Virus record (IMG/VR): IMGVR_UViG_3300022926_000006
Span: 1 to 64,000 of that record
Reading direction: 5' to 3' (one strand)
DNA from: a virus
Length of the DNA: 64,000 nt
The notes below the pieces were generated by a model, which made no database searches, was not told the DNA's origin, and saw nothing but the letters and a program-made list of their open reading frames with translations. A program made the translations under genes and the position numbers. Positions 2,724 to 59,389 of this stretch are shown in pieces. Position 1 is the stretch's first letter, and each line of letters starts with the position of its first letter.

Positions 2724-3926
2724 TTACTTTGCCTTAAATGTTCTGGAGATTGCAGAAACATAGTCTTTCATCTCTCCGGTTAGATTGACTGATTCAGAAA
2801 TCTCTTCAACAGCAACCGCGTCCTCTTCGATAGTTTTGGCAACTTTTGGGAAGTAACTCTCAATGAGTGTTCCCAATTCTTCTTTGTACTGTTCTTCAGT
2901 GTCGAACTGTACGCTTTCTACTAGACCAGCAAACTTCTCTTTTTGAGTGTCAGTTAAGTCTTTAGTAGCATTTTCGATAGCAATTTGCTTCTTTGCTTCG
3001 TTGACGATTTTTGCAGTTTCAGCATTCTTTTGGATTTGCTCATTGAGTTTAGTCTCAAGTGCTTCGATTTTTGATTGCTGTTCTGCCATTACGTCATATT
3101 TGTCTTCTGGAACATCAATGTAATGCTCTTCGAATACTTTCTTCAATGAAACGATGAAATCTTCAGTGATTTCTGATTTAAGACCACGCTCAACTGCGAG
3201 TTCATTATCAGATGCCCACTGCTCAACAACATATGAAAGATAAGTGTCAACTTTCTCTGTCAAATCTTCTTGAATTTTAGCAACTTCTTCTTCCAATGCA
3301 ACAGCAAATGTTTCATTGATATCTGCAACCGCACCATTAACTTTAGAAAGAACTGCCGCTTCAAAGATAGTCTTTGCTTTTGCTTGAGTATCTTCATCAA
3401 GTGAAATTGCTTCAGCAAGGGCAGACATGTCATCAGCAATATCCAAATCTTCGGATTTGTATGATGCTTTTAACTTCTTCTTACCATGTGCCATTTCTTC
3501 GACTTCATCTTCGTCTTCATCTTCATCTTCGTCCTCATCTTCATCGTCTTCTTCTTTAGCGACTACTTTCTTGGACTCTTTCATTTCTTCATCATCTTCG
3601 TCTTCATCTTCGTCCTCTTCCTCATCAACTTTCTCGCCTTTTTTCTTAGCGATTGCTTTCTTGAGGGCAGGAGGAAGTTCGCCTTCAGTGACTTCTTCTT
3701 CTGCAATTACATCTTCATCTGCATCTTCGTCTTCTTTGACTTTCTGCATTTTCTCTTGTGGTTTTTCTCCACCTGGAGCAGATGCTTTTTTCTGTTTCTT
3801 ACCGGCGTCTGGACCAGACTTTGTTTCTGGATCAGTTACAGCAGGACCTAAGTCTTCTGCGCCTTTAGGTGCCGCTTCAGCAATTGATGCTTCTAACAGT
3901 TCCTTAATTTTATCTTCTACTGACAT
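2724..3926 (-). CDS. gp22: Prohead core scaffolding protein
   Basis: AKTIFEAAV, KVDTYLSYVVEQW..DNELAVERGL, F.EHYIDVPEDK; acidic low-complexity N-terminal part. Confidence 0.95.
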   Translation of the reverse strand: MSVEDKIKELLEASIAEAAPKGAEDLGPAVTDPETKSGPDAGKKQKKASAPGGEKPQEKMQKVKEDEDADEDVIAEEEVTEGELPPALKKAIAKKKGEKVDEEEDEDEDEDDEEMKESKKVVAKEEDDEDEDEDEDEDEDEVEEMAHGKKKLKASYKSEDLDIADDMSALAEAISLDEDTQAKAKTIFEAAVLSKVNGAVADINETFAVALEEEVAKIQEDLTEKVDTYLSYVVEQWASDNELAVERGLKSEITEDFIVSLKKVFEEHYIDVPEDKYDVMAEQQSKIEALETKLNEQIQKNAETAKIVNEAKKQIAIENATKDLTDTQKEKFAGLVESVQFDTEEQYKEELGTLIESYFPKVAKTIEEDAVAVEEISESVNLTGEMKDYVSAISRTFKAK

Positions 3927-3969: not shown

Positions 3970-4617
3970 TTAAAGTTTTGACAAGAAATTTTCGAATGCT
4001 TGCAATTTTGCTTCATCTAATTTACGCATAGATGCTTTCTTAATTTCTTGTTTATATCTTTCGATATTCACTTCTTTGATGATGCCATTATCCCACACCC
4101 ACTCTTTACCTTCCATGATGCCACTTACGAAAGCATCAGGTGCAGATGGGTCTGCAACAATGTCGGCGGCGGTTGCAAGATAAAAGTCACCTTGCACTTC
4201 TTGGGCACCTGAACGACCCGCTTTAAGCGAACCCATGCCTCTAGAAGATACCCCCAAAGTAGCGCCTTCATCCATCAAATTCTTAACAATCTTACCATAT
4301 GGAGTATCCATAATCTTTGCTTTGCCTATGACATTAGAACCATCCATCTTCAGTTCTGTAATCATATGCGATACTCTTTCAAGATTGATTGTTGGACCAT
4401 CAGGATGTCCCAACTCACCAAACGCACGTTTACGGTCAATGTTTTCTTTAGTATATCTTTTGACTTCAGTTTCCATAACTGACTTTGGATATACTCGACC
4501 GTTTCTATTCTTGAGGTCGGACTGCATGAATACGCCCTCAATGAAATATTGTTTTGCGCCACCCTTCTCTTCTACAAGAAAGTTAGCGTCTGAAATTTCT
4601 TCTCTAATCAGTTTCAT
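3970..4617 (-). CDS. gp21: Prohead protease
   Basis: NRNGRVYP, GELGHP, GVSSRGMGS, DIVADPSAPDAFV; likely start MKLIREE at 4617. Confidence 0.97.
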   Translation of the reverse strand: MKLIREEISDANFLVEEKGGAKQYFIEGVFMQSDLKNRNGRVYPKSVMETEVKRYTKENIDRKRAFGELGHPDGPTINLERVSHMITELKMDGSNVIGKAKIMDTPYGKIVKNLMDEGATLGVSSRGMGSLKAGRSGAQEVQGDFYLATAADIVADPSAPDAFVSGIMEGKEWVWDNGIIKEVNIERYKQEIKKASMRKLDEAKLQAFENFLSKL

Positions 4618-4618
4618 G

Positions 4619-4975
4619 TTAGATACCTGCATAACCTGTTAATTTTTTAAGCACTAAAATGCATGTGCCGCTATTAGTACCTAATGTTACTTTGATGTCT
4701 TCATCGGCATCTGTGACTTCTGTAGCAGGAAGTATAATGTGTCCTGCTGTAACACCACCACTGTCAAATTTAATTGTTCCTGTAGCGGCACTTTCAACTG
4801 TTACGTCACCAGACCAAATAATTTCCTTGATACCAACAGTAGGTGAAGCGGCAGTTTGACTTGTCACAAGAAATGAAGCACCATCTATATCGATGGTGGT
4901 GTTTCCCGCACCTCCAGTTACACTGACTACATTAGTCGTTTTGGTAACCTTTAGAAATTGTTGACCTATTGCCAT
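4619..4975 (-). CDS. Small beta-rich virion protein, similar to 13365..13736
   Basis: Late promoter upstream; C-terminal DIKVT...GT..LVLKKLTGY. Confidence 0.6.
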   Translation of the reverse strand: MAIGQQFLKVTKTTNVVSVTGGAGNTTIDIDGASFLVTSQTAASPTVGIKEIIWSGDVTVESAATGTIKFDSGGVTAGHIILPATEVTDADEDIKVTLGTNSGTCILVLKKLTGYAGI

Positions 4976-5020
4976 TTTAAATACCCTTTTATTTTACTAA
5001 TATTTATACAGTATAATGTT

Positions 5021-57773: not shown

Positions 57774-58310
57774 TTAATCCCATCTATAAAAAATGTGGTC
57801 ACCTATTTGAGCAATATATGTTTTCGTCTTTGCCCAATAAGGATTTACATAAGTTGCATGATAATGTGTAGACCCCTCAATCATACCATCATAACGACCA
57901 TCTAATACTTTTGTCGCTAAAAGATATAGTCCTGAGTATGCGTACACATCGTTAATTTCGTCAGACTTGCCATCACAGAACCAACTAAACTGACACTTAT
58001 TTCTAATTGGAACATCTTTGTCGTGTTCTTCTTTCCACCACTTAGATGTTGGTCCTTGATGCACCACTTCACATATAGTGTTAGGAAATCTTGAATCCTT
58101 AACGCGGTTCATAACAACTAGTGATACTGCAATCTGACCTGCTTTGGGTTGTCCCTTTGCTTCAAAGTACATATTTTTTGCGAGACAAGTTGTTTCTGCA
58201 TCAATAGTAAATGTTTCGGTTGCAACCTCTGCACTTGATCCGCTTGACTTATAAGCGATTGCAGAAGCAACTAATGCTGTTAACACAATTGTTTTTTTCA
58301 TCATGTACAC
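57774..58310 (-). CDS. Cell wall hydrolase (SleB / Hydrolase_2)
   Basis: CLA.N.YFEA.G, V.NRV...FPNTICEVV.Q, CQFSW.CDG, HYHA.YV.P.W, IGDHIFY. Confidence 0.92.
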   Translation of the reverse strand: MYMMKKTIVLTALVASAIAYKSSGSSAEVATETFTIDAETTCLAKNMYFEAKGQPKAGQIAVSLVVMNRVKDSRFPNTICEVVHQGPTSKWWKEEHDKDVPIRNKCQFSWFCDGKSDEINDVYAYSGLYLLATKVLDGRYDGMIEGSTHYHATYVNPYWAKTKTYIAQIGDHIFYRWD

Positions 58311-58339
58311 AGTATACTATAAAAGAAGAAAGAAGTCAA
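58311..58339 (-). promoter_or_regulatory. Sigma70-type promoter
   Basis: TTGACT-17 nt-TATACT. Confidence 0.75.
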
Positions 58340-58373
58340 GCAGAAAACCACTTGACTTCTCATTATTACCACC

Positions 58374-58592
58374 TTAGCGTTGTGAAACGAAAGAATTCAT
58401 CTCATTTGCTAGTTTGCTGATATCTTCGAATGTTGGAAATGCAGGAAGTTCAGGAAAAGAAACATCTAATCCCGCTTCTCTATCTGCAAAGTATTTCTCT
58501 TTAATATTGCTGATATCAGTGTGATATTGCTCTGTGAGCAGTTGTTTAGCACTCTCAATCATAGAGAAGCGCAAATCGAATGGATTACTCAT
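58374..58592 (-). CDS. Conserved hypothetical protein
   Basis: NPF.LR......AK..L, P.FPT..DI...A.....FVS; AAGGAGA RBS. Confidence 0.75.
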   Translation of the reverse strand: MSNPFDLRFSMIESAKQLLTEQYHTDISNIKEKYFADREAGLDVSFPELPAFPTFEDISKLANEMNSFVSQR

Positions 58593-58617
58593 ACTATTTC
58601 TCCTTGTGTGTATGTGT

Positions 58618-58992
58618 GTAAAATGTAGGGTGAAGCAATTGCTTCTTCTGTTTCCAGGCGTCCCTACGACACCCAGAAGATTATGCCGCTAGGCGAATAT
58701 CTTCATATGCAATGTTATCGTTTGCATTTACTTTGTTTTGACTTATTAGGCGGTCATCCCACAGTTCTACTCTTTCCTGTTTACGTCAGTCGATCCTATT
58801 TCGCCCCCATCATAATTACTCGATTTACCAACACCAGATAGATATCTTATTGGTGTCTTTTCTTGTATCTTAAACAGTTTTATAAAAAACTCTGTTAGTC
58901 TATCAAACATATTGTCCTCAAGTAATTATGGTGGAGGCGGTGGGTATCGCACCCACGTCCTGCCCGTCATTCAGATTGTATCAACAAACTGT
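58618..58992 (-). ncRNA. ssrA: Circularly permuted two-piece tmRNA (outer ends approximate)
   Basis: Acceptor piece ends CGCCTCC-A-CCA at 58929; coding piece starts GGGGGCGAAATAGGATCGAC at 58808; G3:U70 pair; tag frame 58725-58681 ANDNIAYEDIRLAA*. Confidence 0.93.
58767..58910 (-). CDS. 47-aa ORF starting in the tmRNA intervening segment
   Basis: GAGG RBS, then ATG: MFDRLTEFFIKLFKIQEKTPIRYLSGVGKSSNYDGGEIGSTDVNRKE*. Confidence 0.5.
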   Translation of the reverse strand: MFDRLTEFFIKLFKIQEKTPIRYLSGVGKSSNYDGGEIGSTDVNRKE

Positions 58993-58998
58993 ACATTA

Positions 58999-59027
58999 TA
59001 TATAACATGCTTTGATGTAAATGTCAA
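58999..59027 (-). promoter_or_regulatory. Sigma70-type promoter for the tmRNA
   Basis: TTGACA-17 nt-TATATA just upstream of the acceptor piece. Confidence 0.65.
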
Positions 59028-59389
59028 GTAGTAATTCCATTATTACCAAAAATACTGTTATACTCTAATTCACCTCCATCTGATATAACGCAAGTTACAT
59101 TTGCTGATGGAAGAAATTCTAATATTGTGACTGTACCTTTGTCTTTGTTAACTAGAACTTCGACAATACTAGGTAGTGTAGTTTTGTATCTAATCATTCC
59201 AACTTCGCCGTACTCATTCGCGAATTCTGCTTTTACTTCGTTGTATGGTTTCTTAGTACAGACAACAGGTTTTTGTCCTTGTCTATATTCATGTTCTGAA
59301 TTATCTTGAGCAAATGTGATGCTGGATAAAAATGTTAGACACCATACCAATACAATAACATCAAATACCCATGACTTTCTGATATTCAT
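59024..59389 (-). CDS. Exported hypothetical protein
   Basis: Signal peptide; KPVVC, YGE, N...GT.TILE, CVI..G. Confidence 0.65.
   Translation of the reverse strand: MNIRKSWVFDVIVLVWCLTFLSSITFAQDNSEHEYRQGQKPVVCTKKPYNEVKAEFANEYGEVGMIRYKTTLPSIVEVLVNKDKGTVTILEFLPSANVTCVISDGGELEYNSIFGNNGITT

Follow-up and report, generated by a model that had tools for sequence, protein, structure and literature searches.

The permuted transfer-messenger RNA (tmRNA) gene of an uncultured marine phage carries, in the spacer between its two pieces, a small open reading frame (ORF) that, judging from its conservation, is very probably a real gene. The phage is represented by the IMG/VR virus record IMGVR_UViG_3300022926_000006, and we analysed positions 1 to 64,000 of that record (the window, meaning this whole stretch of 64,000 nucleotides (nt)). 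The ORF has its own Shine-Dalgarno (SD)-like sequence and start codon inside a stem-closed spacer, it is conserved with frame-specific selection, and it belongs to a set of cassettes that are exchanged between phages and restricted to phage tmRNA genes. Our favoured explanation, which we consider likely, is that the spacer houses a genuine small protein gene and acts as an exchangeable cargo slot, so that the transcript would double as the messenger of a peptide and the precursor of a tmRNA.

The spacer ORF and its family

ARAGORN placed a permuted tmRNA at 58590-59023 on the minus strand, the strand of all features described here, with the tag ANDNIAYEDIRLAA followed by a stop; we take the gene as a whole to span 58590-59031. 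The gene scored above the gathering cut-offs of two Rfam models, RF04321 (108.3 bits, cut-off 47) and RF01849 (104 bits, cut-off 50), and its acceptor piece is upstream of its coding piece, which makes it a permuted two-piece tmRNA. The tag frame (58725-58681) has an alanine resume codon and a hydrophobic ...LAA end. The acceptor piece (58929-58990) contains the T-arm, the 3' acceptor strand and the CCA at 58931-58929, and it was delimited by ARAGORN, by the sequence and by the RF04321 match, which begins at 58990. The coding piece (58637-58808; ARAGORN and Rfam) has its mature 5' end, GGGGGCG, at 58808. Between the two lies the spacer, an intervening segment of 120 nt and 28% G+C (58809-58928), delimited from the ARAGORN domains and the sequence and presumed to be excised at maturation. 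Excision from the tmRNA precursor would follow the precedent of the family, in which, according to the accessible text of a review, permuted precursors are processed 'probably' via RNase P and tRNase Z (PMC3985003).

Within the spacer, a GAGG (58916-58919) lies 5 nt before an ATG (58910-58908), which opens an ORF of 47 codons. Its TAG is at 58769-58767, and the ORF ends 42 nt inside the mature coding piece. A first-pass annotation, made from the letters of the window, had described this GAGG, the ATG and a stop past the mature 5' end, and also a stem of about 13 base pairs (bp) that closes the segment and extends the acceptor helix; the former are all read in the sequence and the precursor fold agrees with the latter. 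An ATG ORF of equal spacer coverage occurred in 2% of 200 dinucleotide shuffles. The closing stem has 13 bp including one G-U, and in the fold of 58975-58780 it continues the 8-bp acceptor helix by stacking, with one mismatch. Its 5' arm, at 58918-58930, consists of the CA of CCA plus TAATTACTTGA and overlaps the first two bases of the SD-like sequence. Its 3' arm, at 58811-58823, consists of TCGAGTAATTA plus TG and also encodes codons 30-33 of the ORF. The precursor (58975-58780) folds with a minimum free energy of -58.6 kcal/mol (z = -4.9), and none of 200 shuffles was as good. The spacer alone folds with z = -1.97, a value equalled by 8 of 200 shuffles. A closing stem is general in these genes: 105 unique spacers of at least 60 nt had a median stem of 11 uninterrupted bp, formed by 49 different arm sequences, against 4 bp in a shuffled control. 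We also looked for a conserved RNA structure within the spacer loop and rejected it because the second hairpin lacks compensation in locus L097, where the ACACCA/TGGTGT stem drops two pairs.

Alignments, the open frame and the pattern of substitutions delimit a conserved core of codons 1-29 (58824-58910, MFDRLTEFFIKLFKIQEKTPIRYLSGVGK). The core motif of the predicted peptide is M-F-x-R-L...K-E-K...R-Y-L-S-G, which spans about 26-29 residues. An N-terminal helix rich in hydrophobic and aromatic residues is followed by a linker rich in K and E and by a (R/K)-Y-L-(S/G)-G end, and the conserved end of the peptide is approximately ...YL(S/G)G(x)K. Y23 and L24 are the most invariant residues; their codons come shortly before the 3' arm of the closing stem. 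The best-supported reading is that these 26-29 residues would be the functional part, with the peptide as the selected product. The first-pass annotation had called the N-terminus amphipathic. This holds for the window, where residues 1-18 have a helical moment of 0.56 that was matched by 2.9% of 2000 shuffles, and it is less clear in four relatives, whose moments were weaker (6-25% of shuffles).

Relatives of the ORF were collected by two scans of IMG/VR. Scan 1 used an exact 19-mer of the conserved mature 5' end and returned at least 120 stretches that were not chosen by spacer content. Scan 2 used a 16-mer that runs from the CCA end into the first letters of the spacer and returned at least 114 stretches, many of which are not tmRNA. 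Spacer boundaries were set by ARAGORN and by patterns. In both scans together, the family of the window's ORF comprises at least 51 loci with 31 unique spacers and 28 unique cores, counts that are not an unbiased frequency since the loci of scan 2 were picked by closing-stem sequence. Family members range from near-identical peptides to peptides such as MFKLIKNWFEKWLAEKEKSRVKYLGK and MIEKFFLKFKWYRNFVEKQEKKRIKYLGL. The isolated phage Melnitz has a 54-codon member, which lies within a feature annotated as SsrA and is not itself annotated as a coding sequence. We found 22 further close protein clusters for the peptide. A profile search against 1.84 billion representative proteins gave 16 hits at E ≤0.001, and most of the 15 other than P0006 are flanked by tmRNA-encoded residues, for example ...DGGE[IL]GST... 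or GHGGSTHRLHHNYL. P0036, the one hit that lacks tmRNA flanks, led to 11 loci. Four of them show the same N-terminal 29 residues within a tmRNA spacer, placed by ARAGORN in L358 and by Rfam in L357, L359 and L360. When the profile hits were traced to their loci, no free-standing copy of the peptide family was found. The 3' end of the spacer ORF in L358 (1501-1590, ending ...RYLSGKGK before the stop) and L353 (1102-1641) have an 18-nt identical stretch and share YLSGKGKK. The partner in L353 belongs to the C-terminal part of an ordinary phage gene of 179 residues, and P0036 fuses both halves; the join may be either a recombinant or an assembly chimera.

The first-pass annotation had proposed conservation of frame, ATG and ribosome-binding site among relatives, together with a selection test, as checks on the ORF, and both bear it out. 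The frame is open in all 28 unique cores, and the other two frames contain stops in 28/28 and 26/28. Among the 31 unique family spacers the start codon is ATG in 28, GTG in 2 and TTG in 1, and a purine-rich SD-like 4-mer lies 3-15 nt before the start in 29. In 14 disjoint nearest-neighbour pairs we counted 53.6 synonymous vs 103.4 non-synonymous differences, which corresponds to a ratio of non-synonymous to synonymous change per site (pN/pS) of 0.49 (binomial p = 2.2e-5). The shifted frames of the same pairs gave 0.74 (p = 0.12) and 1.66 (p = 0.98). For pairs at 80-90% identity the ratio was 0.13 in the ORF frame vs 0.35 and 3.6 in the shifted frames, and for pairs at 70-80% identity it was 0.37 vs 0.68 and 1.12. 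The peptide motif is retained at nucleotide identities down to about 50%.

Besides the selected sampling of scan 2, several points weigh against a translated gene. When all 378 pairs were pooled, pN/pS was 0.65 vs 0.68 in frame +1, and for pairs at 90-100% identity it was 0.37 vs 0.34. Because these ratios barely differ, the frame-specific signal leans on the disjoint-pair test and on pairs of intermediate divergence, and selection on the ORF is moderate and uneven. The peptide matched no Pfam family and no PHROGs entry, and its Atlas scores were only ≤0.82. Contig X3, from an RNA library, has an extra base in the T-run of the ORF that would break the frame, at a depth of about 4. Furthermore, translation of the ORF, its timing relative to processing and the processing sites are inferred.

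Cargo exchange in phage tmRNA spacers

Scan 1 yielded 101 unique spacers. Among the 46 of at least 100 nt, 36 have an ATG ORF that covers at least 70% of the spacer, a coverage that for 32 of them is matched by no more than 5% of 200 shuffles. On the reverse complement, used as a control, the count was 5/46. All 36 ORF spacers have a G+C content below 0.39 (36 of the 41 such spacers), and none of the five G+C-richer spacers has an ORF. Such an ORF is present in 2 of the 22 spacers of 60-99 nt. The spacer ORFs form 22 clusters, about 16 of which we judged to be real, and several are clearly membrane peptides. About one third of the sampled phage tmRNA spacers hold either a tRNA or an ORF of this kind, and the ORFs belong to at least 15 unrelated families. 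The cellular control comprised 103 tmRNA genes of Alphaproteobacteria that contain the 19-mer of scan 1, out of 120 loci; their median spacer is 34 nt and two are at least 100 nt long.

Cargo and backbone are uncoupled. L062 and L063 have flanks that are 93% and 91% identical to those of the window, yet they carry an unrelated ORF. The window's ORF recurs in L128, L177 and L188, whose flanks are only 74-75% identical. In a contig of a marine metatranscriptome (X1), both sides match the window and 30 other letters replace 110 nt of the cassette (window 58815-58926). Therefore, a co-occurring relative has a short hairpin in place of the ORF cassette.

Complete tRNA-Arg(TCT) genes are found in tmRNA spacers, in the stem-closed slot that holds ORFs in other genes, at L144 4705-4781 (tmRNA 4595-5014), L156 3532-3608 (tmRNA 3299-3720) and L150 4162-4238. 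A tRNA in a tmRNA intervening sequence was called 'unique' in the available text of the 2025 tmRNA database paper (PMC11915505). Nine loci (L032, L043, L070, L113, L048, L088, L102, L110 and L098) have spacers of 159-183 nt with two overlapping ORFs. The upstream ORF encodes M...GDSDEEPSS... and has a strong AAAGGAG SD in the closing stem. The second ORF, in another frame, encodes a membrane-like peptide of 38-44 residues (MKNPLV...WSICAD...) and ends with TGA at -1, counted from the mature 5' end; some members have an A-run at the overlap. In the 157-nt spacer of L103, the ORF begins like the window's family (MLDRLISW...) and continues with the four-cysteine motif CPDTVEGCPTCDAW.

In the explanation that we favour, the primary transcript would be both the mRNA of the peptide and the precursor of the two tmRNA pieces. 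The 10-13-bp closing stem, an extension of the acceptor helix that is presumably required for RNase P and 3' processing, is kept, and the content of the loop, be it one of various small ORFs, a tRNA-Arg or a short hairpin, is swapped among phages. The SD and start would emerge about 100 nt ahead of the 3' arm and could thus be loaded with ribosomes co-transcriptionally. After the departure of the ribosome, the closing stem and the acceptor helix would form and the RNA would be processed. We suggest this order, translation before folding and processing, from the lead of about 100 nt that the SD and start have over the 3' arm and from the overlap of this arm with the 3' end of the ORF.

Stop codon positions and competing explanations

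The window's ORF does not stop within its spacer. Three elements encode the tail of the ORF (58767-58823; codons 30-47 plus the TAG), namely the closing stem, the acceptor strand at the mature 5' end and the tmRNA sequence that follows. The site 58808/58809 coincides exactly with the end of codon 34, and cleavage there would produce a message of 34 codons that lacks a stop. As the first-pass annotation had argued, the geometry of the ORF means that the full product of 47 residues requires RNA that is uncut at this site and that the excised segment would be a stop-less message; the loss of the stop follows from this geometry if the cut lies at 58808/58809.

The window's family falls in a blastp cluster of 56 loci, in which we compared the distance of the stop from the mature 5' end. 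The stop is at +42 in 32 loci, at +36 in 3, at +33 in 1, at +30 in 1, at -7 in 17 and at -12 in 2. The stop is thus within the spacer in 19/56 loci, and P0021 and P0033 read further than +42. In the '-7' clade the TAA is located in the 3' arm of the closing stem. L168, which stops at -7, and P0027, which reads through, are identical in their first 22 residues. A non-stop layout is therefore not conserved across the family. At codon 38, in the tail, close relatives encode I, L, Q, T, P or K, which fits an RNA constraint on the mature 5' end rather than a protein constraint. The conserved stretch ...TATGATGGGGGCGAAATAGGATCGAC... contains TGA in one frame (end at -1) and TAG in another (end at +13), and the third frame is open. 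Whether an ORF crosses the site depends on its frame relative to the conserved ...TATGATGGGGGCGAAATAG..., and the window's ORF runs 42 nt into the mature RNA because its frame is the stop-free one in ...TATGATGGGGGCGAAATAGGATCGAC.... The TAG at +42 lies within GAGTAGAACTGTGGGATG, a stretch that is also found in L082, where the ORF stops earlier. Since the stop varies among close relatives, codon 38 changes radically and GAGTAGAACTGTGGGATG is shared with L082, the tail is probably incidental, a by-product of RNA constraints and not a selected feature.

Among all spacer ORFs, 5 of the approximately 16 families have members that end past the mature 5' end, including the MDEV... family with TAG +13 in 7/7, and 13 of the approximately 16 have members with the stop inside the spacer. 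In several tmRNA genes (L012, L109, L105, L091 and L065; protein P0033) the frame is open through the mature 5' end and continues in phase into the tag frame. The resulting long predicted 'protein' that ends in the tag is likely to be an annotation trap.

Three other explanations were weighed against the cargo-slot reading. The ORF might be an ArfA-like sensor, in which the RNase P cut at 58808/58809 makes the message non-stop, and peptides made after processing are ssrA-tagged and destroyed. The peptide would then build up only with unprocessed precursor or saturated trans-translation, and its level would report maturation or trans-translation capacity, so that the pre-tmRNA would report on itself from within the cargo slot. 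The geometry in the window speaks for it, with the stop at +42 and the cut exactly after codon 34. Read-through is also frequent (37/56 loci end at +30 to +42, and 5 of about 16 families reach beyond the mature 5' end), and arfA is a precedent for a non-stop mRNA that is repressed by trans-translation, according to the available text of PMC10107115. Nevertheless, we consider a sensor unlikely, both as a model of the processing step and as a self-report of the precursor. In-spacer stops occur in 19/56 family loci and in members of 13 of about 16 families, and the layout differs between the close relatives L168 and P0027. Moreover, the stop drifts (+30, +33, +36, +42 and further), the tail residues change radically, and crossing of the site follows merely from the frame relative to ...TATGATGGGGGCGAAATAG.... 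A feedback, sensing or gating circuit had been proposed in the first-pass annotation; it is unlikely and found no support here, since crossing of the processing site is not conserved.

A role of the ORF in cis is quite unlikely. Translation, or a pause of the nascent chain at (R/K)YL(S/G)G, would put a ribosome on the 3' arm that holds the closing stem and the acceptor helix open and thereby times or gates processing. The 3' end of the ORF does overlap this arm and, for the window's ORF, the acceptor strand as well; the SD lies inside the 5' arm in other families (for example TAAGGAGTCTT and AAAGGAGATT), and the most invariant residues, Y23 and L24, are encoded just upstream of the 3' arm. However, the slot is shared by at least 15 unrelated peptide families plus a tRNA, and a hairpin of 20-40 nt suffices for many permuted tmRNA genes of phages and for almost all cellular ones. 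Since the genes with short hairpins manage, processing needs no ORF. The N-terminal helix is conserved too, and pure occupancy does not require it. It is likewise quite unlikely that the ORF is untranslated, and that the open frame and its conservation come from an RNA-level constraint of a structured spacer or from chance in A+T-rich DNA. The fold of the lone spacer (z = -1.97), a pooled pN/pS not far below 1 and the inferred status of translation are consistent with this explanation, but the internal hairpins (ACACCA/TGGTGT in L097) are not kept. The frame is open in 28/28 cores against stops in 28/28 and 26/28 elsewhere, the synonymous excess is frame-specific, the motif is held down to about 50% nucleotide identity, and ORF spacers number 36/46 vs 5/46 in the reverse-complement control.

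The surroundings of the tmRNA gene and related systems

The source record is an 82-kb sequence of an uncultured T4-like marine phage that is about 47% complete. Among named phages, the Melnitz phages of OM43 (Kyanoviridae) come closest, and the match is limited to 100 nt of the tmRNA at 81% identity. A candidate promoter, noticed by eye just upstream of the tmRNA (58999-59027), consists of TTGACA (59027-59022), 17 nt, and TATATA (59004-58999). It is absent from the list of a consensus promoter scan because the scan rule demands T at position 6 of the second hexamer. The first 40 positions of RF01849 align over this region. An Rfam search of 58200-59200 at E up to 1 matched the two tmRNA families and nothing else; no self-splicing RNA was found there. 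No SmpB gene was found in the 82-kb record, which is little informative given that the record itself is about 47% complete. In Melnitz, a glutamine riboswitch (RF01739, 52.8 bits) lies directly downstream of the tmRNA (L001 1687-1735). A link between this riboswitch and the spacer was rejected since it sits outside the spacer and has no counterpart in the window at E up to 1.

Sixteen metatranscriptome runs contain part of the window, and the four that we compared are all contigs. Two contigs from RNA libraries (X1 record 2 and X3 record 14) span the acceptor piece, the spacer and the coding piece, with the flanks covered too. We draw no inference on transcription, ends or processing from them because the contigs extend over the adjacent genes and the sequence before the promoter as well, and might derive from DNA or from read-through. 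The window and L097 have near-identical acceptor pieces and spacers (7 differences in 120 nt), while their coding pieces diverge sharply from about 64 nt in and their tags differ (ANDNIAYEDIRLAA vs ANDNFAHSEYALAA). This suggests a recombination breakpoint within the tmRNA gene.

Several dual-function RNAs also encode a small protein, such as SgrS/SgrT, RNAIII/hld and SR1/SR1P. The gene described here is similar in that one transcript would have an RNA role and a peptide role. It differs in that the coding part is in a segment removed from the functional RNA and in that the cargo is exchangeable, with many unrelated ORFs. With permuted tmRNA genes (those of Caulobacter, Melnitz ssrA and pelagimyophage-like contigs; RF01849 and RF04321) it shares the acceptor-spacer-coding order, the encoded CCA, a tag of the ANDN...LAA type and a stem-closed spacer that prolongs the acceptor helix, and the Melnitz gene has a homologous spacer ORF. 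In contrast, alphaproteobacterial cellular genes have the short spacers noted above. Like arfA, the message of the window would turn non-stop and become a tmRNA substrate if it were cut at the mature 5' end, as the geometry implies. Judged by the available text on arfA, the difference is that the non-stop layout is not conserved among the relatives of the window, where it is known from sequence.

Other insertions in tmRNA genes are known. The available text of the database paper describes group I introns in the T-loop, some with homing-endonuclease genes, and intervening sequences of permuted genes with a tRNA-Ala in one and a repetitive element in another (PMC11915505). These insertions and the spacer ORF are alike in that foreign cargo is tolerated at a site absent from the mature RNA. 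Unlike the group I introns, the window's ORF is between the CCA and the mature 5' end and not in the T-loop, no self-splicing RNA matches there, the cargo has its own SD and is a small ORF of cellular style, and its removal would be end processing of the tRNA type. The first-pass annotation knew of no description of such an ORF. A search of the full-text literature, with most subscription journals and supplements outside its reach, likewise found no paper on ORFs in tmRNA intervening segments. In the available text of the Melnitz paper (PMC9004378) the word 'intervening' is absent and the spacer is not treated as coding, and 'ORF' is absent from the text of the 2025 database paper, supplementary tables aside (PMC11915505). 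Coding spacers are not described in the accessible parts of the tmRNA Website paper (PMC4383926), the review (PMC3985003) and a paper on the small proteome of S. meliloti (PMC10117765).

The spacers of tmRNA genes have hitherto been treated as disposable. If the spacer ORF is translated, the precursor of a stable RNA would be a messenger too, and pipelines that mask RNA genes would overlook a whole class of phage small proteins, as exemplified by the unannotated ORF of Melnitz. Melnitz and its OM43 host form a culture system in which a spacer ORF can be tested. The layouts that cross the processing site would allow one to ask how translation and tRNA-type processing compete and whether the phage exploits non-stop decay. 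The tmRNA genes of aquatic phages would then be natural, strongly expressed, stem-bounded cassette sites at which small genes and tRNAs are swapped.

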